The notes under the pieces were generated by a model, which worked only from the letters and a program-made list of their open reading frames with translations, did no database searches and was not told the DNA's origin. Shown here in pieces: positions 10,486 through 44,710 of a stretch of 64,000 bases of DNA (its first letter is position 1; every line of letters begins with the position of its first letter). Both the position numbers and the translations under genes were made by a program. The stretch lies in the NCBI GenBank assembly GCA_043797125.1, contig JAZDPX010000012.1, forward strand, positions 24,376 through 88,375, written 5' to 3'. Source of the DNA: Candidatus Omnitrophota bacterium (GTDB lineage: Bacteria; Omnitrophota; Gorgyraeia; JABMRG01; JAFGKX01).

Positions 10486-10695
10486 ATGTTTATTTTTGGT
10501 TTAATAGGCATAGTAGCATTGGCTTTAGGAATACTGCATTTTACCAGCACGGATACAATATGTAAAATAGATGAAATCGGGAAAAAGGTTATCATTACCA
10601 TGGATAAGATGGTAAAAAAATACCCTAAAAGATTAGGCGTGCTTTACATTATTGCCGCTACTTTCCTGATTTATGTTGGCTTCTTTTTGAAATAA
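10486..10695 (+). CDS. small two-TM membrane protein, hypothetical
   Basis: 69-aa ORF with two hydrophobic helices. 3' end overlaps the convergent gene. No recognisable motif. Confidence 0.3.
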   Translation: MFIFGLIGIVALALGILHFTSTDTICKIDEIGKKVIITMDKMVKKYPKRLGVLYIIAATFLIYVGFFLK

Positions 10696-12785
10696 TTTAA
10701 AGCCTTGTATAGATTCAGCCTTGCCTGTACGTGATTCGGGTTAAGGCGCAGCGCCTTTCTCCAAAATTTAATCGCCTTATCTTGATTTCCGATAGCGTTG
10801 TATATTACCCCGATATTGTTATAAGCAAATGCCGACCCCGAATCAGAGCGTAAGATTGCCCTAAACGCTTTCAGAGAATCATTTATTTTTCCTTTTTCGT
10901 AAAATAAAAGCCCAAGCCTGCTAAAGGCCTCGGTATGATTGGGGTTTGCCTTGACAACTTTTAAGAACTCCTCAATTGCCTTATCGCTTTCGCGCTTTTT
11001 TTCGTATGCAAGCCCGAGGTTATAATGGATAAACGGGCTTTTTTGGTCCGCATTTTTTGCCTCTTCTAATACAGATATGGCCTCATCATACAGGCCGATT
11101 ATTCTTAGGAATTCCCCTTTCTTAAAAAGCGTAAACGGAAACAGCCCCTTTACTGCCTTTTGAGCAGGATATTGTTTAATTACTTCGTAGATATTAGGAT
11201 ATTTATTGATAATATCCCTGTTCGCAAAAGAATTTTTTACAAAGACGCAGGATATCTCGTCAAAAAAGACAAGCCTCCAGTCGCTATTGTTATAAATATA
11301 TTCCAGAAGCGCGTCAGAATCAATGTATATGCGGCTTAAAATTATATAATTTATGTCAAAACCTTTCGTCACCTTGTCAAATTCTTTAGGATGCGATGTT
11401 AAGTCCACGTAGCCTTTGTAGAATTTCGGGCCGTATACTTCGGTTCTGCCGTCGATAAACACCTTTCTTTCAGGGGTAAGCCGAAAGATAAGATAACCGC
11501 CTATTTCGTAGGCATTGAACATATTGCCTTTGATGTTATTTGCCAGGATAAAGCGAACAGCGTCCTTTGGATATTTTGCATCCAAATCCCCAAGCCCGAA
11601 ACTTCGCACTGTTTTTTCCCTGAAGCAATATCTTGGAGATGTGGCAATAAAAGTTAAAGAAAGCATGCCGGCGATAAGACATAGAAGCAGTAGTAATTCT
11701 AAAACCATAGGGGACAGTTTCCCGAACAATTTGGAAAGCGTCTCCCGAACAAATCGGAAAGCGTCTCCGGATTGAGCAGATTCAAAGTTAAGCATGGTAA
11801 TAGGAGCGGTGAGTATGGCAAAATCAATGATATTTCTATTGGCCTTAAACGAAAAGGCCAAAAAAATAGCGTAAATGATAAGGTGCGTAGGATTCAAGCG
11901 CTTGTAATTTAAAACAAAGCCGGCTAAAGATAAAAATATCAGAAGTTTATAATAAGGGTAAGGTTGTAATTTTAAGATATTGTAAATATTAAGAGGCGGC
12001 TGCAGCTCCGTGATGTATTTCATTATAACTTCCTGCCAGCCGCTGTTGTTTATGCCTGTTAATGTCAAAAACGGATACAAAGCCCCGGTTAAGCCGTTTG
12101 GATTTATCAGGCCTGCTAATATGGCTGCCGCTGCAACACGCAGCAGCGTATTAAGTTTTTCTCTTTTCATGCGCTGCAATGCCTCGCCGATTAAATAGGA
12201 GAGTATAAGTATTATCCCCATTAAAGAGCCGCCGTGCAGATTTGTCCAAACCATTTGCAAGACAGGCAGTAAAAAAATTAGTTTCGTATTTTTGTATTTA
12301 AAATTATGCAATATTGAAAAATATATAACAAGGAATAAGGAATTGAACATGAAGGGGCGCTCAAGAAATCTATGTTCTGAAGCCAAAACCGCCACGACCG
12401 TTAAAATCACAGAAACCAAATATAAATTCTTGCGAAAACAAACAGCAAAAACAATAAAAAACGCAGCGCCAAAAACAAGCGCCTTCAAAACCACGATGCC
12501 GCCCAAGCCAAAGCCCCTGAAAATTAAGAAAAGCAAGACATCAGCCAACCACTGATGGTTAACCCATCGATGGCCAGGCACTGTATATGAAAATATATCG
12601 ATTTTTGGGATAAAACCATTGGCTAATATATACTCCCCTGTTTTTAAGTGCCACCAGATGTCAAAATCCCTTATATTTTGAATTAACATGGCAGCTACAA
12701 ACGTAAAAAGCCCTAAAAATACAGCGTATTTCGCGGCCTTTAGCAAGACAGGCAGCCAAGGAAAGAAAAAATTTTGCTTTTTCAT
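10671..12785 (-). CDS. polytopic membrane protein (GT-C/PMT-like N-terminal domain) with C-terminal TPR repeats
   Basis: At least 10 predicted TM helices in the N-terminal 450 aa. The C-terminal 170 aa contain about four TPR units (NLGLAYEKK..., AFSRLGLLFYEKG..., AYNNIGVIYNAIG...). Confidence 0.7.
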   Translation of the reverse strand: MKKQNFFFPWLPVLLKAAKYAVFLGLFTFVAAMLIQNIRDFDIWWHLKTGEYILANGFIPKIDIFSYTVPGHRWVNHQWLADVLLFLIFRGFGLGGIVVLKALVFGAAFFIVFAVCFRKNLYLVSVILTVVAVLASEHRFLERPFMFNSLFLVIYFSILHNFKYKNTKLIFLLPVLQMVWTNLHGGSLMGIILILSYLIGEALQRMKREKLNTLLRVAAAAILAGLINPNGLTGALYPFLTLTGINNSGWQEVIMKYITELQPPLNIYNILKLQPYPYYKLLIFLSLAGFVLNYKRLNPTHLIIYAIFLAFSFKANRNIIDFAILTAPITMLNFESAQSGDAFRFVRETLSKLFGKLSPMVLELLLLLCLIAGMLSLTFIATSPRYCFREKTVRSFGLGDLDAKYPKDAVRFILANNIKGNMFNAYEIGGYLIFRLTPERKVFIDGRTEVYGPKFYKGYVDLTSHPKEFDKVTKGFDINYIILSRIYIDSDALLEYIYNNSDWRLVFFDEISCVFVKNSFANRDIINKYPNIYEVIKQYPAQKAVKGLFPFTLFKKGEFLRIIGLYDEAISVLEEAKNADQKSPFIHYNLGLAYEKKRESDKAIEEFLKVVKANPNHTEAFSRLGLLFYEKGKINDSLKAFRAILRSDSGSAFAYNNIGVIYNAIGNQDKAIKFWRKALRLNPNHVQARLNLYKALNYFKKKPT
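11690..11775. repeat. two tandem copies of a short dispersed repeat (TTTCCCGAACAA...GGAAAGCGTCTC) embedded in-frame in the TPR membrane protein gene
   Basis: gacagtttcccgaacaatttggaaagcgtctcccgaacaaatcggaaagcgtctcc. Its reverse complement matches 34967-35002 in the bio esterase-BioC gene at 31/33 nt. Confidence 0.5.
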
Positions 12786-12892: not shown

Positions 12893-12968
12893 GCCCGCAT
12901 AGCTCAATTGGTAGAGCAGCGCCCTCTTAAGGCGAAGGTTCCAGGTTCGATTCCCGGTGCGGGTACCA
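12893..12968 (+). tRNA. tRNA-Lys (anticodon CUU)
   Basis: Cloverleaf by eye: acceptor GCCCGCA/TGCGGGT, D-arm GCTC/GAGC, anticodon loop CTCTTAA, T-loop TTCGATT, 3' CCA encoded. Confidence 0.9.
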
Positions 12969-13108
12969 TGAACCATTCGACAAAACCTTTGGTTTTGTCT
13001 CAGGTTCATGGCACAGCCATGAAAGTTTTGTCGAATGATGAATGCCCTGTACCCGAGCCCCGATGCTTCGGGGCGAGTGGTTCAGGGCAACCATGCTTGC
13101 TTGTATTC

Positions 13109-13193
13109 GCGGATGTGGCGAAATTGGCAGACGCGTGCGGCTTAGGACCGCATGGAGCAATCCATGGGGGTTCAACTCCCTCCATCCGCACCA
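13109..13193 (+). tRNA. tRNA-Leu (anticodon UAG), long variable arm
   Basis: Acceptor GCGGATG/CATCCGC, anticodon loop CTTAGGA, variable arm TGGAGCAATCCATG, T-loop TTCAACT, CCA encoded. Closely resembles canonical tRNA-Leu. Confidence 0.9.
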
Positions 13194-13232
13194 GCGAATT
13201 TTGCTACGCAAAATTTGTGAAACTAAAAAACG

Positions 13233-13307
13233 CGGGTGTAGCTCAGTTGGTAGAGCATTACGTTGCCAACGTAAATGTCGTCGGTTCGAACCCGATCACC
13301 CGCTCCA
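13233..13307 (+). tRNA. tRNA-Gly (anticodon GCC)
   Basis: Acceptor GCGGGTG/CACCCGC, anticodon stem TTACG/CGTAA with loop TTGCCAA, T-loop TTCGAAC, CCA encoded. Confidence 0.9.
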
Positions 13308-20387: not shown

Positions 20388-21479
20388 ATGGATCCACAAA
20401 ATTATTTAAAGATGATGCTGGATAAGGGGGCTTCAGATCTTTATTTTAAGGTAGGCAGCCCTCCATGCCTTAGGGTAAATGATGAGCTCAAGCTCTGCGA
20501 CGAAAATAGACTCAAACCCGAGGATACGGAAGCTGTCGCTAAGAAGATTATCGGTAAGGAGAAATTCGATGAGTTTATCCAGAAAAGAGAACTTGATGCA
20601 GCTTATAGCGTTTCTGGTGTGGGGAGATTCAGGGTTAATATGTATATACAAAGAGGTACCGTATCAATAACGCTGCGTTCTATCAAAAGCCAAATTTCAT
20701 CTTTTGCCGAATTAAATTTGCCTATAGATATAATGCAGAGGCTTTCCTCCTGCCAGAGGGGCCTTGTATTGATAACAGGGCATGCCGGCAGCGGCAAAAG
20801 CACCACGTTAGCGGCTATCATTGATTATATAAATGAAAATACAGCGAGGAATATAATAACCATAGAAGATCCCATTGAATTTTTACATCGCGATAAAAAA
20901 TCAATAATATCGCAAAGAGAAGTTGCTACAGATACCGATAGCTTCAACGTGGCATTGCGCCATGTTATACGCCAGTCTCCGGATGTGATACTTATCGGCG
21001 AAATGAGGGATTTAGAGAGCATACAGACAGCCATGATGGCGGCTGAGACGGGGCATTTGGTTTTAAGCACACTGCATACTGTTGATACAACCCAGACAAT
21101 CGAGAGGATTATTAATTATTTTCCGACCCACATGCATCATCAGATAAGGATGCAGTTCGCGCTTCTTTTCGCGGGTGTTATCTCAATGAGGCTTATTCCG
21201 CGTTGCGACAAACCCGGGCGCGTTCCCGCATGCGAAATAATGCTGCCGTCTCCCACGGTAAAAAAGATGATACACGAAGGCAGGATAAATGAGATAATAG
21301 ACGCCATTCAGGACGGCGCCATCTTTAGGATGCAGTCTTTCAATCAGGCGCTTATTGACTGGGTTAAGAAAGGCGTCGTAAGCAAAGAATCCGCTCTTGA
21401 AAACGCCAGTAACCCCGATGAGCTAAGGCTGGAATTTGCCGATATTTTTTCCGGCAAAAAAACACATGAAAAACAGTAA
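20388..21479 (+). CDS. pilT: PilT-family type IV pilus retraction ATPase (variant Walker A GHAGSGKST)
   Basis: T2SSE core with Asp and His boxes. Length and organisation are PilT-like. Confidence 0.8.
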   Translation: MDPQNYLKMMLDKGASDLYFKVGSPPCLRVNDELKLCDENRLKPEDTEAVAKKIIGKEKFDEFIQKRELDAAYSVSGVGRFRVNMYIQRGTVSITLRSIKSQISSFAELNLPIDIMQRLSSCQRGLVLITGHAGSGKSTTLAAIIDYINENTARNIITIEDPIEFLHRDKKSIISQREVATDTDSFNVALRHVIRQSPDVILIGEMRDLESIQTAMMAAETGHLVLSTLHTVDTTQTIERIINYFPTHMHHQIRMQFALLFAGVISMRLIPRCDKPGRVPACEIMLPSPTVKKMIHEGRINEIIDAIQDGAIFRMQSFNQALIDWVKKGVVSKESALENASNPDELRLEFADIFSGKKTHEKQ

Positions 21480-21493
21480 GAGAGGAGTTTGAA

Positions 21494-22543
21494 ATGCTGG
21501 ATATTAAGGATCTTTTAAGGCACGCTTCGGAAAAAGGCGCTTCTGATTTGCATATTACGCAGGACATGCCACCTATGTTGAGAATAGACGGAGAATTGCA
21601 CACAACAGCATTTGATATTTTGAACAGAGAGCAGACCAAAAAAATGGTTTATGGTATTTTAAATGATAAGCAGAAAGTGAGGTTCGAGGAAAATCTAGAA
21701 CTGGATCTTTCCCTTTATGTGCCGGATTTGTGCCGTTTTAGGGTAAACGTGCACATGCAAAAAGGCAGCGTCGAGGCGGCATTCAGGGTTATACCGAATA
21801 CCGTGCAGACCGTAGAAAAACTGGGCCTTCCCCGCATAGTATCTGAATTGGCAAGGCTGCCAAACGGGCTTGTGCTGGTAACAGGGCCCACAGGAGTAGG
21901 CAAGAGCACAACGCTCGCTTCTATGGTGGACCAGGTTAACAATGAAAGGCACTGCCATATTATCAGCGTAGAAGATCCGATAGAATATGTGCATCAGAAT
22001 AAAAACAGCATAGTGAAGCAAAGAGAGGTGGGTATTGATACCTTGTCTTTTTCCAACGCGCTAAAGCACGCGCTCAGGCAGGACCCTAACGTTATATTGG
22101 TAGGCGAAATGAGGGATCTGGAAACCATATCTACGGCAATAACAGCTGCTGAAACAGGGCATCTAGTGTTAAGCACTCTTCATACGCCTGATGCCCCGCA
22201 GACCATAGACAGGCTTATAGATATATTTCCTCCTCATCAGCAGGAACAGATAAAAGTGCAGCTATCAGGCTGTTTTCAGGGAGTTATATGCCAGCAGCTG
22301 CTTGTAAGAAAAGATGGCAGGGGAAGGATTCCTTCGTGCGAGATAATGACAGGTACATCAGCGGTCAGAAGCCTTATACGGGAGCACAAGACAGAACAGC
22401 TTATGACAGTTATACAGACAAGCGGCAAGCACGGCATGATAACGATGGATAAATCCATAAAAAAGCTGTATCTAGACGGCCTGATAGATCTTGAGACAGC
22501 GCATGATAAAATAAAAGACAAGGCAGAGTTTGAAAAGTTATGA
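21494..22543 (+). CDS. pilT: PilT/PilU-family twitching motility ATPase
   Basis: Walker A GPTGVGKSTT, Asp and His boxes. The AVRSLIRE motif near the C-terminus resembles the PilT AIRNLIRE signature. Confidence 0.85.
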   Translation: MLDIKDLLRHASEKGASDLHITQDMPPMLRIDGELHTTAFDILNREQTKKMVYGILNDKQKVRFEENLELDLSLYVPDLCRFRVNVHMQKGSVEAAFRVIPNTVQTVEKLGLPRIVSELARLPNGLVLVTGPTGVGKSTTLASMVDQVNNERHCHIISVEDPIEYVHQNKNSIVKQREVGIDTLSFSNALKHALRQDPNVILVGEMRDLETISTAITAAETGHLVLSTLHTPDAPQTIDRLIDIFPPHQQEQIKVQLSGCFQGVICQQLLVRKDGRGRIPSCEIMTGTSAVRSLIREHKTEQLMTVIQTSGKHGMITMDKSIKKLYLDGLIDLETAHDKIKDKAEFEKL

Positions 22544-30506: not shown

Positions 30507-30593
30507 GGCCTGTTGCAATTTGCTCCCCCCGATGTCATTCCCGCGAAACTTGTCCCCGTGAAAACGGGGAGCGGGGATCCATAGTTCGGCTTT

Positions 30594-30820
30594 TGCAATG
30601 TTTGGTGCTAAATCCTTTTAGCTTTTGCGTGCCTGCCTTCGCTTGTCGCTCGCAAAAAGGATCGTTTCGCCTTCGGCGAAAGGCGCTTTTTGCTCGCTGT
30701 GGCAAAAATCGCTCACTTCTCGCTTAGGTTTTCGCGATTTTTGACAGTCGCTCCGGCAGGACACGCAAAAGCTTTTTTAATGTACCTCGCATTGCAGAAA
30801 CCTCACTTAGATGAATTAGG
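30594..30820. mobile_element. MITE-like highly structured repeat element, copy 1
   Basis: Terminal inverted repeats GGCTTTTGCAATG...CATTGCAGAAACC. Internal nested palindromes. A second copy sits at 36438-36621 with near-identical termini and both end in ATTAGG. No ORF. Confidence 0.5.
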
Positions 30821-32248: not shown

Positions 32249-33184
32249 TTGACAATTATGGAAACCGCCTCAAAAACCACAAAAAACCAGCTCCTTGAGC
32301 TGGAGCTTTCCGAGCTTTTACTTAGAGCCAATAGGATAAGGCAGCAATTTATAGCTGACAGAGTAGAGCTTTGCAGTATTACGAACGCCAAAAGCGGCTT
32401 ATGCAACGAGGACTGTAAATTCTGCGCCCAGGTATCACGCTACAAAGCCGCAAAACAGACGTATCCCCTTAAAAGCGTAAAAGAGATAGTAGCGGCCGCA
32501 AAAACTGCCAAATGCGCAGGCGCAGGAAGGTTCGGTATTGTAACAAGCGGCAACCGCCTGAACGCAAAAGAGCTGGGCGATATAGCGGCTGCAATATCAA
32601 AAATTAAAAATGAAGTTAATATTATTGTTTGCGCATCCTTAGGTGCCCTTAATGAAAATGAGCTGAAAAAATTAAAAGACGCAGGGCTTTCGCGTTATCA
32701 TCACAATATCGAGACATCCGAAAGGTTCTACCCGAACATCGTCTCTACGCATAGTTTTAAAGAGCGCATAGATACAATAAGGGCCGCCAAGCAAGCAGGC
32801 TTAGAGGTTTGCAGCGGCGGCATAATCGGCATGGGTGAGAGCTGGCAGGATAGAATTGATATGGCGCGCACTTTAAAAAAATTAAATGTGGATTCTGTGC
32901 CCTTAAACCTGCTTGTGCCTATAAAAGGGACGCCTTTGGAATTTATTGAGCCTATTTCCTGCAAAGATGCAATCAGGGCAATAGCTATTTTTAGAATCAT
33001 ATTAAAGGACAAGACCTTAAAGATAGCCGCAGGAAGAGAAAGCGTTTTAAAGGATTTTCAGACCTTAGGATTTTTAGCAGGCGCTAATGGAATGATTATA
33101 GGTGGTTATCTTACTGTTAAAGGCAATCCCCTGCAGGATGATTACAAACTTATAGAACAAGTAAAATCTTTATGGAGCAAATAA
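32249..33184 (+). CDS. bioB: biotin synthase
   Basis: Radical-SAM CNEDCKFC (CxxxCxxC). BioB length and motifs. Confidence 0.9.
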   Translation: MTIMETASKTTKNQLLELELSELLLRANRIRQQFIADRVELCSITNAKSGLCNEDCKFCAQVSRYKAAKQTYPLKSVKEIVAAAKTAKCAGAGRFGIVTSGNRLNAKELGDIAAAISKIKNEVNIIVCASLGALNENELKKLKDAGLSRYHHNIETSERFYPNIVSTHSFKERIDTIRAAKQAGLEVCSGGIIGMGESWQDRIDMARTLKKLNVDSVPLNLLVPIKGTPLEFIEPISCKDAIRAIAIFRIILKDKTLKIAAGRESVLKDFQTLGFLAGANGMIIGGYLTVKGNPLQDDYKLIEQVKSLWSK

Positions 33185-34326
33185 ACCAGTTTTTAAAAGA
33201 GGCAGAAGAAAACGGCCTTTTAAGAATCCTGCACCCGGCAGATTACAGAAGAAACGGCGTGATTTGCATTGAAGGCAGAGAATATGCTGATTTTTCATCC
33301 AATGATTATCTTGGCTTATCGCATCATGCTTATATAAAAAGCGCCTCATGCAATATTATAGAAAAACTCGGCGCCTCATCAAGCGCATCCAGATTATTAA
33401 GCGGAAGCTTAACGCTTCACAGCGAACTTGAAGACAGAACCGCCTCTTTTAAAGGCAAGGAAGCAGCTCTTATTTTTAATAGCGGCTATCAGGCAAACAT
33501 AGGGATAATAAGTTCGTTGTGCTCAAGGGGCGATGTTGTCTTCACCGACAAGCTAAGCCACGCGAGCATAATCGATGGGGTATTGTTATCCGGGGCGAAA
33601 CTTTTTAGGTTTCTGCATAATGACGCAGGGAGTCTTGAATCTTTATTAAAAACGCACAGGCAAAAATTTAAAAACGCCCTGATAATAACAGAAACAGTTT
33701 TCAGCATGGATGGGGACATAGCGCCTTTGAAAGACTTAGTAAGCATAAAAGAAGAATACAACTGCCAAATCATGATTGATGAAGCTCATGCAACAGGCGT
33801 ATTCGGCGATAGTGGCTCAGGGATTGCGGAAAAGGAGAATTTAACAGATTCCATAGATTTGATTATGGGGACATTCAGCAAGGCCCTCGGAAGCTTCGGT
33901 GCCTATTTGGCTTGCTCAAAAAATATAAAAGATTATTTAATAAATACATCAAGAAGCTTTATATATTCCACCGCATTGCCACCCTCGGTTATAGCGGCAA
34001 ATTTGGCCAGCCTTGAGTTAATTAAAAAGGAGCCGTTTAGAAGGCGGGAACTTTTGCAGAAAGCGTCATATTTTAGAAATGAATTATCAAGCCTCAGGCT
34101 TACAGTAAAAGGCTCTTCGCAAATAATACCTTTAATTGTTAAGGACAGCCGTAAGGCAGTAAAAATCAGCAGCCTCCTTAAAGAGAAAGGCTTCTGGGCG
34201 CCTGCCATAAGGCCGCCTACGGTCCCTGCCAATGAAGCGCGAATAAGGTTTTCCTTAAGTTATTGCCACACAAAAGATGTATTGGATAGGCTTATCAATG
34301 ATATCTATGAAATCAACGAATTTTAA
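33172..34326 (+). CDS. bioF: 8-amino-7-oxononanoate synthase
   Basis: Class II aminotransferase fold. PLP lysine in TFSKALGSFG. FSSNDYLGLS. Confidence 0.85.
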   Translation: MEQINQFLKEAEENGLLRILHPADYRRNGVICIEGREYADFSSNDYLGLSHHAYIKSASCNIIEKLGASSSASRLLSGSLTLHSELEDRTASFKGKEAALIFNSGYQANIGIISSLCSRGDVVFTDKLSHASIIDGVLLSGAKLFRFLHNDAGSLESLLKTHRQKFKNALIITETVFSMDGDIAPLKDLVSIKEEYNCQIMIDEAHATGVFGDSGSGIAEKENLTDSIDLIMGTFSKALGSFGAYLACSKNIKDYLINTSRSFIYSTALPPSVIAANLASLELIKKEPFRRRELLQKASYFRNELSSLRLTVKGSSQIIPLIVKDSRKAVKISSLLKEKGFWAPAIRPPTVPANEARIRFSLSYCHTKDVLDRLINDIYEINEF

Positions 34327-34354
34327 ATACATAAACAGGAATAAAGAGAGCACA

Positions 34355-35848
34355 ATGGTTTTTGTGCCCGGCTGGGCAACTGATTACAGGATTTTTGATT
34401 CGCTAAAGCAGGATTGCAACTGCCTGATCCCTGAGAGTTTTCACCCGTTCGATTTTAAAGAGCGTCTTTTGAATGCGTTAAAAAAAAATAGCATAGAAAG
34501 GCTCTCGCTTTTTGGATTTTCGCTCGGTGGTTTTGTCGCAGCGGAATTTGCTTTTGAATTTCCAAAGCTGGTAGATGAGCTTGTGTTGGTAGGCATAAGA
34601 AAAAGATACGACCCCTTGGCGATAGAGACGATAAAACAAAAGCTTCTAAAAAACAAAAACGCCTTTTTGTACACATTTTACAGTCAGTGTTTTTATAATA
34701 AAGACGCCTTTTCCTTTTTTAAGAAGAATTTGCTCAAAATTTATTGCGATTGTATGGAGCTGGATTACCTGCTTGAAACTTTGGAGTATCTAAAAAATTC
34801 TAGAATAACATCCCAGATGCTGAAAGCAATAAAGAGCGTAAAAATCATGCACGGAGAATTTGACGCAATAGCCCCGATAGAAGAGGCCAGGGATATAGCA
34901 CGCAGCTTAAACAATGCAGAGTTCGCATGCCTACAAAACGAAGGCCACATCCCCTACAGCTGGAGACGCTTACCAAATTGTTCGGGAAAGTGTCCCAAAA
35001 TTGTTCGGGAAAGTGTTCCCGTCTTGTTCGGGAAACAGTTTCCTGAACAGATCAGAAAGCGTTTCCCGAGCAAGTTGGAAAACGTCTCGATGAACAAAGA
35101 AGCTATAAGAAGGAATTTTTCGAAATACGCAGGATATTATGATCAATACTGCAATATACAGAATGCCTGCGCGCAAGAACTCATAGGAAAATTAAACGGC
35201 GCTCATTTCAATAATATTCTTGATATCGGCTGCGGAACAGGAAACTACACTAAATTTTTAAGGGAAAAATTTCCAAAGGCCGCAATAAAGGCGATAGACA
35301 TCTCGGAAAACATGATAGAAATAGCGAAGCTTAAATTATCGGGCGATAATATAGAATTTATCGTTGCCGATGCGGAGACAATAGACCTTGACGCTGGGTT
35401 TGACCTTTTAAGCTCAAACGCTTCCTTGCAATGGTTTGAAAACCTAGAAAGCGCTCTTATAAAATATAAGGAATTACTGGCAGCAGGAGGCGTCGCGCTG
35501 TTTTCTGTATTCGGGCCCAACACTTTTCATGAGCTGGATGAGTCCCTGAAGCAGGTATTCGGCAAAAGTAAAAGCATAAGTTCCTATAATTTTCTGGAAA
35601 AAAGAAAAATAGAGGCTGTCTTAAGCGGACTTTTTAATGAAATCCAGATAGAGCAAAAGATATACACCGAAAAACACGCCTCTTTGACAGACCTGCTTAA
35701 AAAAATAAAATATACAGGCACAAGAGGCAATGGCGCTCGTACGCTTTGGAGCATTGGCACATTAAGCAGGCTTGAAGACGTATATAAAAAGAAATTCAAC
35801 GATATAACAGCAACATACGAGGTGTTTTTTTGCAAAGCGGTAAAATGA
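34355..35848 (+). CDS. fusion of pimeloyl-ACP methyl ester esterase (BioG/BioH-type alpha/beta hydrolase) and malonyl-ACP O-methyltransferase BioC
   Basis: N-terminal ~215 aa carry the GFSLGG nucleophile elbow and His near the end. C-terminal half carries SAM motif ILDIGCGTGNYT and BioC-like sequence. Start set at ATG 34355 (RBS AAAGAGAG). Confidence 0.75.
   Translation: MVFVPGWATDYRIFDSLKQDCNCLIPESFHPFDFKERLLNALKKNSIERLSLFGFSLGGFVAAEFAFEFPKLVDELVLVGIRKRYDPLAIETIKQKLLKNKNAFLYTFYSQCFYNKDAFSFFKKNLLKIYCDCMELDYLLETLEYLKNSRITSQMLKAIKSVKIMHGEFDAIAPIEEARDIARSLNNAEFACLQNEGHIPYSWRRLPNCSGKCPKIVRESVPVLFGKQFPEQIRKRFPSKLENVSMNKEAIRRNFSKYAGYYDQYCNIQNACAQELIGKLNGAHFNNILDIGCGTGNYTKFLREKFPKAAIKAIDISENMIEIAKLKLSGDNIEFIVADAETIDLDAGFDLLSSNASLQWFENLESALIKYKELLAAGGVALFSVFGPNTFHELDESLKQVFGKSKSISSYNFLEKRKIEAVLSGLFNEIQIEQKIYTEKHASLTDLLKKIKYTGTRGNGARTLWSIGTLSRLEDVYKKKFNDITATYEVFFCKAVK
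34967..35090. repeat. intragenic array of a ~23-nt repeat (TTGTTCGGGAAAGTGTCCC; three direct copies plus one inverted) in the esterase-BioC linker
   Basis: ccaaattgttcgggaaagtgtccc / aaaattgttcgggaaagtgttccc / gtcttgttcgggaaacagtttcc / tttcccgagcaagttggaaaacgtctc. Each copy is read in a different codon phase. Confidence 0.6.
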
Positions 35849-36465
35849 AAGCTATTTTTGTTACAGGCACCGGAACAGGCGTAGGAAAGACCACTGTCTG
35901 CAGACTGCTGGAAAGATTCCTTAAGACAAATGGATACAGGACGATAACGCAGAAGTGGATCTGCACAGGCAGTAAAACCCTTCCCATAAATAAAGATAAG
36001 CAGCCTTACACATTTAAATTTCCTGCCTCGCCTCATCTTGCGGCGCGGCTCGAACGAAAATGTGTAAGTAAAAAAATAATAAAACAAAGTTTCAGGAATT
36101 TGCAGAGGCAGTTTGATTTTGTAATAGTAGAAGGCATAGGTGGGGCGCTTGTGCCTTTTAATAATAAGCAACTGGTGATAGATATTGCCAAAGAACTGAA
36201 GCTGCCAGTTTTGGTAGTAATAGATAATAAACTCGGCGCCATTAACCATGCCCTATTAACTATCGAGGCCTTGCGGCGAAGAAAGATGAACATAATAGGC
36301 CTCATCTTCAATAACCGCCGCAAGAGTCAGAACAAAATAATCTTGAATGATAATGTTGATATAATAAAAAGGCTGACAGGGAAGCGGGTGCTGGGAGTAC
36401 TGCCATTCATTCAACGGCGGGCCCTATCTCACCGTTGGTTCGGTTTTTGCAATGCTTGGTGCTGA
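35830..36465 (+). CDS. bioD: dethiobiotin synthetase
   Basis: P-loop FVTGTGTGVGKTTV. Length about 210 aa. The last ~10 codons and the stop lie inside the MITE-like element. Confidence 0.85.
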   Translation: MQSGKMKAIFVTGTGTGVGKTTVCRLLERFLKTNGYRTITQKWICTGSKTLPINKDKQPYTFKFPASPHLAARLERKCVSKKIIKQSFRNLQRQFDFVIVEGIGGALVPFNNKQLVIDIAKELKLPVLVVIDNKLGAINHALLTIEALRRRKMNIIGLIFNNRRKSQNKIILNDNVDIIKRLTGKRVLGVLPFIQRRALSHRWFGFCNAWC

Positions 36466-36621
36466 AATTTTTCGCCGTCCTTTTGGACTTACGGCTTGGT
36501 CGCTTACCCTATAATAAAGAATCTTAGCCGCTTCCGCGCCGTAAGTCCTAAAAGGACATTTGGCGAAAAATTTCTAATGCACCTTCGCATTGCAAAAACC
36601 TCACCAATGGTAAATATTAGG
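36438..36621. mobile_element. MITE-like structured repeat element, copy 2 (overlaps bioD 3' end)
   Basis: Termini GGTTTTTGCAATG...CATTGCAAAAACC. Internal 28-bp stem TTTTTCGCCGTCCTTTTGGACTTACGGC/GCCGTAAGTCCTAAAAGGACATTTGGCGAAAAA. Confidence 0.5.
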
Positions 36622-36945
36622 CCGAGGGGTGTTACTTTAGAATTCGCAACTGATTAAAGGCTTAAGGCGTTGCCGAAAAAACAATAGCGGAGGATTTGGT
36701 ATACTTGCTTAGGAGTAGGCAAAACTTAGGAGTGCCTGCCTACCGTCAGGCAGGCAGGCTGGGGACACCGAAACTGAACCCTTGTATAGTAGGGCCGGCT
36801 TAAGCCTGCCCTACTATCAGTAGGTGAATTTCGGAGGGGCCCCAGCCGAACGACTATAGTTTTGCCCAAATCCGAAGCGTGTTTTTGAGGCAATGCCTTA
36901 AGCCTATTAATGTAGCTCAAATTGCAAAAGCCTCAACTTAGGTGA
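36590..36945. repeat. left arm of long inverted repeat flanking bioA
   Basis: Reverse complement matches 38297-38607 at roughly 85-90% identity by eye, e.g. cctcaaaaacacgcttcggatttgggcaaaactatagtcgttcgg and ctgcctgcctgacggtaggcaggcact. Confidence 0.7.
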
Positions 36946-36949
36946 TAAT

Positions 36950-38296
36950 ATGAATACGTGGATAGAGAAGGATCTCAAGTACGTTTGGCATCCGTATACC
37001 CAAATGAAGGATTGCAAGAAACTCCCGCCTATTCTGATCGAGCGGGCAAAGGGTATTAAGCTCTACGATAACAAAGGTAATTTTTACTACGATACCATCT
37101 CAAGCTGGTGGTGCAATGTCCACGGGCATAACCATCCCAAAGTAAAAGCGGCGATTAAAAGGCAGCTGGATTTATTTGAGCACGTGATGTTTGCCGGCTT
37201 TACGCATAAGCCCGCCATTATGCTGGCAGAAGAACTTATCCGCATTTCTCCCGAATCCCTGACAAAGGTGTTTTTTTCAGATAACGGCTCAACAGCTGTT
37301 GAGACAGCGCTTAAAATGTCTTTTCAATATTGGCATAACACAGGCAAAAGCAAAAAGACAAAATTTCTTTCCTTAGATTACGGGTATCACGGCGACACAA
37401 TAGCGACGATGAGCGTAAGCAGCGTTGATTTGTTCAATATAAAATATAAAGCGCTTATGTTTAACTCGTACAAGGCGAGTTCGCCTTACTGCTATCGCTG
37501 CCCCGTAGGAAAAAATCGCAATAATTGCAGTATAGAGTGCATAGGTTCGCTGGAAACCGCGCTTAAAAATCATAACAGCGAAATAGCCGCTGTTATATTA
37601 GAGCCACTGGTTATGGCTGCAGGCGGAATGATTATATATCCTAAAGAATATCTGGAAAAGGCAGGCGCACTTGCTGAAAAATACAATGTCCACCTGATAT
37701 TAGACGAAGTTGCAACAGGCTTTGGCAGGACAGGAAAGATGTTTGCCTGCGATTATACGGATATACAACCTGACTTTATGTGCCTGTCTAAAGGCATAAC
37801 AGCGGGTTTTCTTGCGATGGGCGCAACGTTGACTACGGATAAGATTTACAATGCCTTTTATGCGGATTATCAGAAGAAAAAGACATTTTATCACGGCCAT
37901 ACCTATACCGCTAACCCTTTATGCTGCGCAGCAGCATTAGCGAGCCTTGGTGTGTTCCGCAAAGAGTGCACTTTAGACAAAATAGACAAACTTATTCCAG
38001 TTTTTCATAAAAAGCTGGAAGGTTTTAAGAATCTTCCAGCTGTCGGAGACATCCGCTACATAGGCATGATAGGCGCTCTGGAATTAGTTAAGGATAAAAA
38101 TACCAAAGAGGCATTTGGCTTTAAAGAAAGAATAGGCCAAAAGATTTATGCCGAAGGCTTAAAAAGTGGCATTTTGTTAAGGCCGCTTGGAAATATAATT
38201 TATTTCTTCTTGCCTTTATGTATTGCAGAGCGCGAGATTAAACTCATTTTAGAAAAGTCCTATAATATACTTTCCAGAATCAGCAAATCTATTTAA
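36950..38296 (+). CDS. bioA: adenosylmethionine-8-amino-7-oxononanoate aminotransferase
   Basis: Class III aminotransferase. N-terminal YVWHPYTQM. PLP-lysine region typical of BioA. Confidence 0.9.
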   Translation: MNTWIEKDLKYVWHPYTQMKDCKKLPPILIERAKGIKLYDNKGNFYYDTISSWWCNVHGHNHPKVKAAIKRQLDLFEHVMFAGFTHKPAIMLAEELIRISPESLTKVFFSDNGSTAVETALKMSFQYWHNTGKSKKTKFLSLDYGYHGDTIATMSVSSVDLFNIKYKALMFNSYKASSPYCYRCPVGKNRNNCSIECIGSLETALKNHNSEIAAVILEPLVMAAGGMIIYPKEYLEKAGALAEKYNVHLILDEVATGFGRTGKMFACDYTDIQPDFMCLSKGITAGFLAMGATLTTDKIYNAFYADYQKKKTFYHGHTYTANPLCCAAALASLGVFRKECTLDKIDKLIPVFHKKLEGFKNLPAVGDIRYIGMIGALELVKDKNTKEAFGFKERIGQKIYAEGLKSGILLRPLGNIIYFFLPLCIAEREIKLILEKSYNILSRISKSI

Positions 38297-38607
38297 GGCT
38301 TAAGGCATAGCCTCAAAAACACGCTTCAGATTTGGGCAAAACTATAGTCGTTCGGCCGGGGCCCCTCCGAATTCACCTACAGATGGTAGCGCAGGCTTAA
38401 GCCTGCGCTACCATCCAAGGGTTCATTCGGTGTCCCCGGCCTGCCTGCCTGACGGTAGGCAGGCACTGCTATGTTTTGCCTACAACCAAAACAAGCGAGC
38501 CAAATCTTCCGCTATTGTTTTTTCGGCAATGTCTTAAGCCTTCAAAGCGGAGACATTGTCAATAAGTTAGGCTTTTGCAATGTGAGGCGCATATGTTTAA
38601 GGCCTGT
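38297..38607. repeat. right arm of long inverted repeat flanking bioA
   Basis: Inverted copy of 36590-36945. Contains hairpin GGTAGCGCA-GGCTTAAGCC-TGCGCTACC. Confidence 0.7.
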
Positions 38608-38751
38608 GGTAATTCGAGCAGGGCTTGCGAGGCCGAGCGGGCATGGTTCGCCCTTGTTTCCATACAGGCGAGAGCGAAGGCCGAGGTCAGAGCACAAAAA
38701 TCCACGCTGGGGATTTTTGTGCGTCCCTGCGAGAATTGCCACAGGCCTTAA
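38607..38751. repeat. 145-bp palindromic structured element
   Basis: Ends TTAAGGCCTGTGGTAATTCGAGCAGGGC and GTCCCTGCGAGAATTGCCACAGGCCTTAA pair over about 28 bp. Internal perfect hairpin GCACAAAAATCC-acgctgg-GGATTTTTGTGC. Confidence 0.5.
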
Positions 38752-38774
38752 GCAAGTCTACTCAAATATTAAAC

Positions 38775-38802
38775 TTGACATATATTAAAGTACATATAAA
38801 AT
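38775..38802 (+). promoter_or_regulatory. candidate sigma70 promoter for rpe-rpiB
   Basis: TTGACA (38775-38780), 16-nt spacer, TAAAAT (38797-38802). Confidence 0.35.
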
Positions 38803-38850
38803 AGCAAATATAATACTAATATTTACCCCGGCAAAGGAACAGCATATAAT

Positions 38851-39525
38851 ATGAAAACAGAAATCGAGATACTTCCTTCATTATTATCAGCGGATTTTTC
38901 CATACTTACAGAAGAGATAAAAAAGGTTGAACAGGCAGGCTGCAAAAAGCTGCACCTGGATGTGATGGATGGTCACTTTGTGCCTAACATAACCATCGGC
39001 CCTGTTGTGATAAAAAAGATAAGAAAAAAGACCAAGCTTTTTCTCGACGCGCACCTTATGATAGAGAACCCGCAAAAATATATCAACGATTTTAAAGAGG
39101 CAGGCTCCGACGGTATTACCATACACCAGGAAGCGTGTGAAGATTTTTTAGGCGCGATAAGACAGATAAAAAGTTTAGGCCTGGTAGCCGGAGTGGCATT
39201 AAGGCCGAAAACTTCCGTTGATACAATTAAGAATATTATACACGAGGTGGATTTGATTTTAATTATGTCCGTTGAGCCGGGTTTTGGCGGGCAGGCGTAT
39301 ATTGACGGTTCAGAAAAGAAGATAGAAGAGCTGGCGCGCCTGATTAAGGCAAAAGGCCTCAACACACCAATACAGGTTGACGGCGGGATAAATATCCTAA
39401 CTGCGCCGCTGGTAGCTAAAGCAGGGGCAACGCAGCTCGTTGCCGGGAACGCTGTTTTTTGCGGGGATGTCATAAAGAATATTAACGCGTTATATAAAAG
39501 CATAGGTAAAAAAAATGAGAAATAA
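38851..39525 (+). CDS. rpe: ribulose-phosphate 3-epimerase
   Basis: ILPSLLSADF...HLDVMDGHFVPNITIGP...MSVEPGFGGQ. Confidence 0.9.
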   Translation: MKTEIEILPSLLSADFSILTEEIKKVEQAGCKKLHLDVMDGHFVPNITIGPVVIKKIRKKTKLFLDAHLMIENPQKYINDFKEAGSDGITIHQEACEDFLGAIRQIKSLGLVAGVALRPKTSVDTIKNIIHEVDLILIMSVEPGFGGQAYIDGSEKKIEELARLIKAKGLNTPIQVDGGINILTAPLVAKAGATQLVAGNAVFCGDVIKNINALYKSIGKKNEK

Positions 39526-44678: not shown

Positions 44679-44710
44679 GACGTAGCGGAGGCTTAAGCCT
44701 CCGCTACGTC
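44679..44710. repeat. perfect hairpin GACGTAGCGGA-GGCTTAAGCC-TCCGCTACGTC (GGCTTAAGCC REP-like family)
   Basis: Same GGCTTAAGCC core and GTAGSGC arms as hairpins at about 36788-36816 and 38378-38406. Confidence 0.6.

Follow-up and report, generated by a model that had tools for sequence, protein, structure and literature searches.

The biotin gene bioA, in a 64-kb stretch (64,000 nucleotides, hereafter the window) of a contig from a metagenome-assembled genome (MAG) of Candidatus Omnitrophota, is bracketed by two inverted repeats, A and A'. [quoted passage not shown] We infer that A is mobile; judged by its sequence, it belongs to no named family. All positions are coordinates of the window unless a metagenome locus is named, and folding z-scores of A and A' are relative to dinucleotide shuffles. 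The repeats and the two genes concerned are as follows.

36658-36905, plus strand: element A, the left copy, a non-coding, quasi-palindromic repeat of 248 nt bounded by the terminal inverted repeats AGGCTTAAGG...CCTTAAGCCT; folding free energy (dG) -138 kcal/mol, z -10.6.
38296-38541, minus strand: element A', the right copy, 246 nt, the reverse complement of A at 88.9%; dG -133 kcal/mol, z -11.4.
36950-38296, plus strand: bioA, an intact gene for adenosylmethionine-8-amino-7-oxononanoate transaminase of 448 aa; its identity to Omnitrophota relatives is 70-73%.
35830-36465, plus strand: bioD; no alignment with relatives is possible over its last ~16 codons, of which the final ~12 (36429-36465) overlap a further hairpin element, B1, the remainder lying just upstream of B1.

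When the window was compared with itself by blastn, the one strong inverted match paired 36654-36905 with 38545-38296, with 88.9% identity across 253 aligned columns (E ~1e-87 to 1e-89); a repeat search divides this match into four consecutive arms of 82-96% identity each. A first-pass annotation of the window had described by eye an inverted repeat of ~300 bp at 85-90% identity, and the sequence blocks it quoted are all present. The inversion and the identity hold, but the length does not: A and A' are mutual reverse complements over ~250 bp, identity falls from 89% to unalignable at the repeat ends, and beyond the arms there is only a weak 31-nt match (36585-36615 versus 38555-38585, 74%) that is part of a second repeat family, B. 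An nhmmer profile built from A and A' found only these two copies in the 64 kb and scored them at 302-306 bits in the relative orientation given above versus 52-55 bits on the opposite strand, which shows that the pair is truly inverted although each copy is itself quasi-palindromic. Of 250 alignment columns, 27 differ between the copies, 23 by a substitution and 4 by a gap; in the MAFFT alignment the mean column identity including flanks is 91% and the longest perfect blocks shared by the arms are 28-29 bp. Since the source is a MAG contig, an assembly artefact might be suspected, but we find this scarcely credible because the differences between the arms are structured and compensated, whereas artefactual inverted joins yield identical arms, and because the genes on either side are intact and syntenic.

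Each copy adopts a branched long-hairpin fold with a central GGCTTAAGCC hairpin, and the terminal inverted repeats are 88% complementary over 26-nt arms and 83% over 30-nt arms. The parts of the element that matter below are the following.

36786-36817, unstranded: apical hairpin of A, ATAGTAGGGCCGGCTTAAGCCTGCCCTACTAT.
38383-38415, unstranded: apical hairpin of A', ATGGTAGCGCAGGCTTAAGCCTGCGCTACCATC, with two compensated pairs and one repaired mismatch relative to the left copy.
36735-36755, plus strand: 21-nt side-branch hairpin CCTGCCTACCGTCAGGCAGGC in A, an extra module in one arm that occurs widely outside this genome.
38443-38463, minus strand: the same 21-nt hairpin, CCTGCCTACCGTCAGGCAGGC, in A'.
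36653-36657, unstranded: ATTAA, upstream half of a putative 5-bp target-site duplication of the left copy, read from the sequence.
36906-36910, unstranded: ATTAA, downstream half of the putative duplication, identical to 36653-36657.

Exact ATTAA flanks such as those of the left copy are estimated to arise by chance with a probability of ~0.1-0.4%. At the other end of the gene, the bioA stop codon finishes on the first base of A'. Within the palindrome the left arm exceeds the right by 40 nt, of which 21 nt are the self-contained side hairpin, and removal of this hairpin in silico leaves the main stem unaltered. A search of the whole window against Rfam at the gathering threshold recovered three tRNAs elsewhere and no family on A or A'. 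Membership of a known RNA family was rejected, as Rfam at permissive E-values on 36200-38900 gave nothing except sub-threshold microRNA-hairpin noise. Two translated frames of A had no protein relatives, one frame having been searched against a database of 5.8 billion protein sequences and the other against a representative library of 1.84 billion proteins.

The setting of the repeats is a biotin operon whose genes start at 32249 (bioB), 33172 (bioF), 34277 (fused bioH-bioC), 35830 (bioD, to 36465) and 36950 (bioA, to 38296), followed by rpe, rpiB and rlmN. Three relatives have the same order, bioB-F-H-C-D-A, with bioD and bioA overlapping or 10 nt apart and the next gene 0-60 nt after bioA, and A and A' are missing from both the bioD-bioA junction and the bioA 3' end in all three. 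Given how compact both sides of bioA are in these relatives, the 485-bp and 555-bp spacers found here are lineage-specific insertions, and the shared position of the gene indicates that the repeats came to bioA and not the reverse. On this comparison of gene order, bioA is in its ancestral place and orientation. The first-pass annotation had raised the possibility that bioA was mobilised as a cassette between repeat elements, and a composite transposon of this sort has a precedent in the MITE pairs that flank and apparently mobilise integrons in Acinetobacter (PMC10969869). The comparison of locus structure in relatives that it had proposed speaks against this idea, since bioA ends the same operon, in the same orientation, in three genomes that lack the arms; moreover, the closest BioA homologues are Omnitrophota proteins, the base composition of bioA is unremarkable and the outer flanks of the pair have no duplication in common (ATTAA versus TCAAA). 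We therefore regard arrival of bioA between two elements as highly improbable.

Alignment with the relatives also bears on the ends of bioD and bioA. The BioD tail, RRALSHRWFGFCNAWC at 36418-36465, has ~16 last residues that cannot be aligned, and the whole tail is missing from one relative (locus L123), which suggests that it is dispensable; the BioA C-terminus is 2 residues longer than in relatives. As read from these alignments, the BioD tail and the BioA stop codon are remodelled by insertions. A separate peculiarity of the operon is that bioH (alpha/beta hydrolase) and bioC (methyltransferase) are fused here in one 523-aa open reading frame (ORF) at 34277-35848, where the three relatives have two overlapping genes of ~225 and ~255 aa.

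A second proposal of the first-pass annotation was that recombination between the arms would invert bioA. Inverted repeats of ~250 bp around a single gene are the arrangement expected of an invertible segment that serves as an on/off switch, and the longest perfect blocks, at 28-29 bp, are near the minimum for homologous recombination. Several observations nonetheless make such a switch very improbable. ATTAA is intact on both sides of the left copy, and because an inversion between the arms would split this pair, a past single inversion, or any odd number of inversions since insertion, is unlikely. The 11% divergence means that the arms have not been homogenised, bioA is co-oriented with its operon as in the relatives, no recombinase, site-specific or otherwise, was found within ~13 kb on either side of bioA, and there is no obvious benefit in flipping a biosynthetic gene out of its operon.

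The repeats are not the only hairpin elements in the window, and the others include the B family that lies next to them.

36429-36613, unstranded: element B1, a 185-nt long hairpin of the second repeat family, with ends GGYTTTTGCAATG and CATTGCAAAARCC; z -14.2.
30580-30812, unstranded: element B2, a second full member of the B family, situated in a different long spacer; its ends are those of B1, but its palindromic core differs; z -7.8.
36911-36945, plus strand: a solo right end of the B family (Y2) directly 5' of the bioA start codon, carrying an AGGTGA ribosome-binding site.
38555-38590, plus strand: a solo left end of the B family (Y3') just outside A', which explains the weak extension of the inverted repeat in the first-pass annotation.
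38594-38754, unstranded: element C, a long hairpin of 161 nt whose arms measure 30 nt and whose sequence has no relationship to A or B; z -9.1.
44679-44710, unstranded: GACGTAGCGGAGGCTTAAGCCTCCGCTACGTC, an isolated and perfect palindrome of 32 bp, in which the apical hairpin of A is present as a module for the third time, with one more compensated pair.

The B family, with two full members and two solo ends, has conserved ends of ~35-40 nt (GGYTTTTGCAATG... and ...CATTGCAAAARCCTCAC) around differing palindromic cores; no relatives were found in the fetched loci or in viral contigs, the latter scanned with a B-family end, and plasmids and phages, searched with the B1 region only, gave no match. 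The stand-alone palindrome starts 14 nt past the stop codon of an ApbE-family gene. Five long hairpin elements are thus present in 64 kb (B1, A, A', C and B2), and four of them crowd around bioA, with B2 elsewhere, a distribution that is expected where nested insertions are tolerated.

A number of results weigh against the reading of A and A' as copies of a mobile element. Multi-copy dispersal is what defines mobile repeats, and the known copies of A are two, 1.4 kb apart within the window. Two exact patterns (a conserved 22-mer and a three-block structural pattern) had 0 matches each in 185,579 species genomes, 125 fetched loci contained no additional copy, and the loci listed by a metagenome scan with a 20-mer of the side hairpin share that hairpin and no other part of A. 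Plasmids and phages gave no blastn match to A, and viral contigs, scanned with the apical-hairpin pattern only, gave 0 matches. No transposase, recombinase or REP-associated tyrosine transposase (RAYT) was present among the 21 ORFs scanned between 23.5 and 47 kb, where the 20 proteins with a Pfam hit are all housekeeping or metabolic and one further overlapping minus-strand ORF has no hit. The right copy has no flanking duplication (ATTTA versus TCAAA), the G+C content of A is above that of typical MITEs, and the relatives that serve as the 'empty site' comparison are distant, their BioA proteins being 70-73% identical.

Some of these results would equally suit an alternative in which A was never mobile and A' was copied from A, together with the neighbouring B-family end, across bioA by a local inverted duplication, for example through template switching in replication. 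Only two copies of A are known and they are close together, the right copy lacks a flanking duplication, searches of genomes, loci and proteins found no other A, and a B-family end lies just outside each copy (36588-36600 and 38570-38582). We consider a local duplication unlikely because identity breaks off sharply at the terminal inverted repeats, the A copies are separated from the B-family ends by spacers of different length (57 versus 28 nt) that cannot be aligned, the left copy has a clean 5-bp duplication, and modules of A are found alone elsewhere.

The substitutions that separate the two copies indicate the level at which the palindrome is constrained. The first-pass annotation had described a hairpin inside the arms whose paired changes keep each stem intact, and the central hairpin does read ATAGTAGGGCCGGCTTAAGCCTGCCCTACTAT on the left and ATGGTAGCGCAGGCTTAAGCCTGCGCTACCAT on the right, with the changes as described. 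The consensus fold has four two-sided compensations (G-C to A-T, T-A to C-G, A-T to G-C and G-C to C-G), one paired co-deletion and three changes from G-U to Watson-Crick pairs. To avoid the bias of a consensus structure, each copy was read on the minimum-energy fold of the other; on these single-copy folds the 23 substitutions comprise 4 compensations, 2 one-sided conservative changes and 6-7 broken pairs. In a simulation of random substitution (n = 200,000), the probability of at least 4 compensations was 1.1e-4 and 12.2 broken pairs were expected, so that the structure-preserving paired substitutions are real and above chance. The step from there to selection on the structure is only one explanation. 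Palindrome-templated repair can produce paired changes without selection, and in either copy the two strands fold with nearly the same stability (-125 to -135 kcal/mol), G-U accounting for 3-4 of ~90 pairs. An RNA acting from one strand would ordinarily contain a larger share of G-U pairs and fold asymmetrically between strands. Equal folding of the two strands and the near-absence of G-U argue for a palindrome maintained in DNA, and the predicted folds thus point to a constraint on A as a DNA palindrome rather than as a strand-specific RNA.

An interpretation at the RNA level was also considered. The first-pass annotation had noted that the 5' and 3' untranslated regions of a single transcript could pair into an RNase III-type duplex enclosing the ORF. 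The A:A' cofold has a predicted energy of -431 kcal/mol versus -266 kcal/mol for two local hairpins, and the minimum-energy fold of the 2 kb from 36600 to 38600 contains 199 long-range A:A' pairs. The prediction that a ~200-bp 5'/3' RNA duplex enclosing bioA would be thermodynamically favoured, if bioD-bioA and the 3' spacer are co-transcribed, is sound. In its strongest form the proposal is of a selected device in which the arms pair around bioA as the stalks of 16S and 23S rRNA do, and RNase III excises or destabilises the bioA message and uncouples it from bioBFHCD. No intrinsic terminator was found between bioD and bioA, and none with a U-tract inside the elements; the paired substitutions are above chance, and Correia elements are known substrates of RNase III (PMC2649163, PMC10969869). 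A selected device is distinctly unlikely, however, because the compensations keep pairing within and not between the arms, which are 11% diverged, both strands fold equally with almost no G-U, and the arms, and hence their pairing, are not conserved, being missing from all three relatives. Co-transcriptional folding should in addition favour the local 5' hairpin, which would be made 1.4 kb earlier than its partner. Covarying hairpins in intergenic DNA do not alone indicate a functional RNA, and the bioA repeats are a clean example.

Transcription signals around the operon were few. A promoter-like match at 36922-36949 was discounted as a promoter of bioA, as it ends 1 nt before the bioA ATG. 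Just past element C and ~50 nt upstream of rpe lies a sigma-70-like, near-consensus promoter (38775-38802; TTGACA, 16 nt, TAAAAT; 11 of 12 matches), which suggests that rpe is transcribed independently of the bio operon.

If A and A' are copies of a mobile palindromic element, as we favour, they would have arrived, most probably in separate events, near the end of a bioB-F-H-C-D-A operon that had once been compact. One copy would have inserted at ATTAA, in a bioD-bioA spacer already opened by B1, and the other at the bioA stop codon, beside further hairpin elements (a B-family end and element C), bioA itself having neither moved nor inverted. The palindrome would be maintained in DNA, either because a hairpin or cruciform in single-stranded DNA is needed for propagation or because one arm is repaired from the other. 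Translational coupling of bioD and bioA would probably have been lost, with a repeat end supplying the new ribosome-binding site of bioA, and read-through of the operon would be expected to yield very stable RNA hairpins, or a long-range duplex, cleavable by RNase III-type enzymes as in Correia elements. The locus would then illustrate that, in an uncultured phylum with streamlined genomes, selfish palindromes can force apart the genes of a biosynthetic operon despite their tight coupling, replacing a protein tail and donating a stop codon and a ribosome-binding site.

The side hairpin of A has a distribution of its own. The metagenome scan, for which the query was the side-hairpin 20-mer, yielded at least 123 exact copies in at least 120 loci (L001-L120), and the 21-nt hairpin is also present verbatim in 2 viral contigs; the chance expectation is ~1-2 copies if the collection holds ~1e12 bases, a rough estimate. 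Among the matches listed, at least 115 different flanks were found in 118 usable copies, and the hairpin is followed directly by C in 71 of 115, an excess which implies that the unit is an oriented 21-mer, CCTGCCTACCGTCAGGCAGGC. The listed copies are mostly intergenic (median stop-free span of 73 aa versus 250 aa at random positions), and one-third of the listed contexts are unusually structured, with z below -3. That the 20-mer always caps a longer palindrome was rejected, ungapped pairing of the flanks being no better than in the control. At least 5 copies are nested mid-way in a sister hairpin, and loop variants within the same loci follow RCCGKC. Carriers belong to at least two phyla, including an Omnitrophica WOR_2 contig (L019) and a conjugative-transposon region by traM in Flavobacteriaceae (L045).

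Several copies lie inside genes. On the minus strand of L101 (440-800), the 20-mer separates nucleotides 9 and 10 of a tRNA-Gly(GCC) copy whose T-loop carries a related hairpin; in the tRNA-Leu(UAA) next to it a hairpin occupies that same position of the T-loop, and a tRNA-Gly that is intact adjoins. L022 (160-290, minus strand) carries a fragment of tRNA-Leu in which hairpins lie at 9/10 and within the D-arm. Among protein genes, a dehydrogenase in L010 (690-740 and 2440-2500) has a 33-nt in-frame insert (PGLPAYRQAGR) between its ADH_N and ADH_zinc_N domains, while in its tandem paralogue a compound insert of 50 nt causes a frameshift, and a TonB-dependent receptor in L079 (3240-3275) has a 24-nt in-frame insert (RLPDGRQG). 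Related sites in L030, L082, L070 and L118 have one or two hairpins each, and no strictly orthologous empty site was obtained. In 20 loci no known structured RNA other than tRNA was found at hairpin sites, and the literature searched held no paper on the 20-mer sequence.

These observations allow a tentative and less probable account in which A arose as a mosaic through the insertion of very small mobile hairpins into one another, the 21-mer being a cross-phylum 'nano-transposon' and the bracket around bioA a by-product of hairpin accretion. Mobility of the 21-mer is presumed here from its many contexts. Its confirmation would carry more weight than the bracket around bioA and would raise the questions of how so tiny a sequence spreads and whether the interrupted tRNAs and proteins still function.

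Three further features of the window stand apart from the repeats. Within the bioC part of the fused ORF, 34962-35020 forms an inverted match with 11768-11710 (94% over 35 nt, 80% over 59 nt), the partner being a 704-aa minus-strand ORF at 10671-12785. Two adjacent paralogous genes at 20388-22543 have ~65% DNA identity (20750-21121 versus 21857-22228), and a cluster of three tRNAs lies at 12893-13304.

Compared with described bacterial repeats, the bioA pair is a fairly ordinary kind of bacterial DNA, useful for annotation and not surprising. MITEs carry terminal inverted repeats as well as direct repeats, the latter fading with age, and their transcripts form stable stem-loops, with cleavage by RNase III possible (PMC10969869, PMC2649163). 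A has terminal inverted repeats, a length of 246-248 nt, no coding sequence and a stable stem-loop, and it is absent from the orthologous sites of relatives; the putative target-site duplication is exact at the left copy (ATTAA/ATTAA) and has no counterpart at the right (ATTTA/TCAAA). The Correia repeat enclosed elements of Neisseria (CREE, also called Neisseria miniature insertion sequences, NEMIS) are likewise short and non-coding, have terminal inverted repeats, lie beside or inside operons and form a hairpin in mRNA; they are documented substrates of RNase III and can alter the expression of neighbouring genes (PMC2649163, PMC10969869). They differ in being ~100-155 bp long, with >100 copies per genome, insertion at TA, and promoter and integration host factor (IHF) sites, whereas A is ~248 bp and branched, has two known copies and shows no sequence similarity to them. 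QMITE2 of Coxiella burnetii has terminal inverted repeats of 23-29 bp, direct repeats of 7-9 bp, an embedded GTAG-type palindrome and a predicted hairpin of great stability, and two of its copies flank a chromosomal gene cluster (PMC10969869); it is like A in its terminal repeats and stability, but it belongs to another organism, differs in sequence, is multi-copy and is targeted by IS1111.

REPINs, which are mobilised by RAYTs, share with A a symmetric palindrome, conserved ends, a constraint at the DNA level and compensatory changes, which are common in REPIN hairpins (PMC3116915). In A the palindrome is likewise kept by compensatory changes and is symmetric on both strands; unlike A, however, with two copies in the window and no RAYT in 23.5-47 kb, REPINs are ~100 nt long, occur in hundreds of copies and have a cognate RAYT. 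The MITE pairs of Acinetobacter class 1 integrons resemble A and A' in that two copies of one MITE bracket one or more genes, but those MITEs are identical and the segment between them occurs in varied genomic contexts, which is evidence of mobilisation (PMC10969869), whereas A and A' are 11% diverged and bioA is syntenic.

The modular build of A has parallels of another kind. Bacterial interspersed mosaic elements (BIMEs) of Escherichia coli are mosaics of smaller hairpin modules that also occur separately. The BOX elements of pneumococcus, too, are assembled from smaller hairpin modules that occur separately (PMC3049150). The likeness is that two hairpins of A are also found by themselves, the apical one at 44679-44710 and the side one in metagenomes, but there is no sequence relationship to BIMEs or BOX, and two copies do not establish a module grammar of A. 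Rickettsia palindromic elements are comparable with the 21-mer only, through their in-frame insertion in protein genes. The same restriction applies to the small dispersed repeats (SDRs) of cyanobacteria, reportedly described by Elhai et al. in 2008 (Genome Res 18:1484) and said to be confined to one subgroup. Like the 21-mer, SDRs are tiny hairpins found in many unrelated contexts, nested in themselves and embedded in larger mini-transposons. The 21-mer differs from SDRs in its occurrence on both Omnitrophota and Flavobacteriaceae contigs and inside tRNA genes; if it is indeed mobile, it would rank among the smallest known mobile DNAs, and its hosts would be far more diverse than those of the cyanobacterial SDRs.

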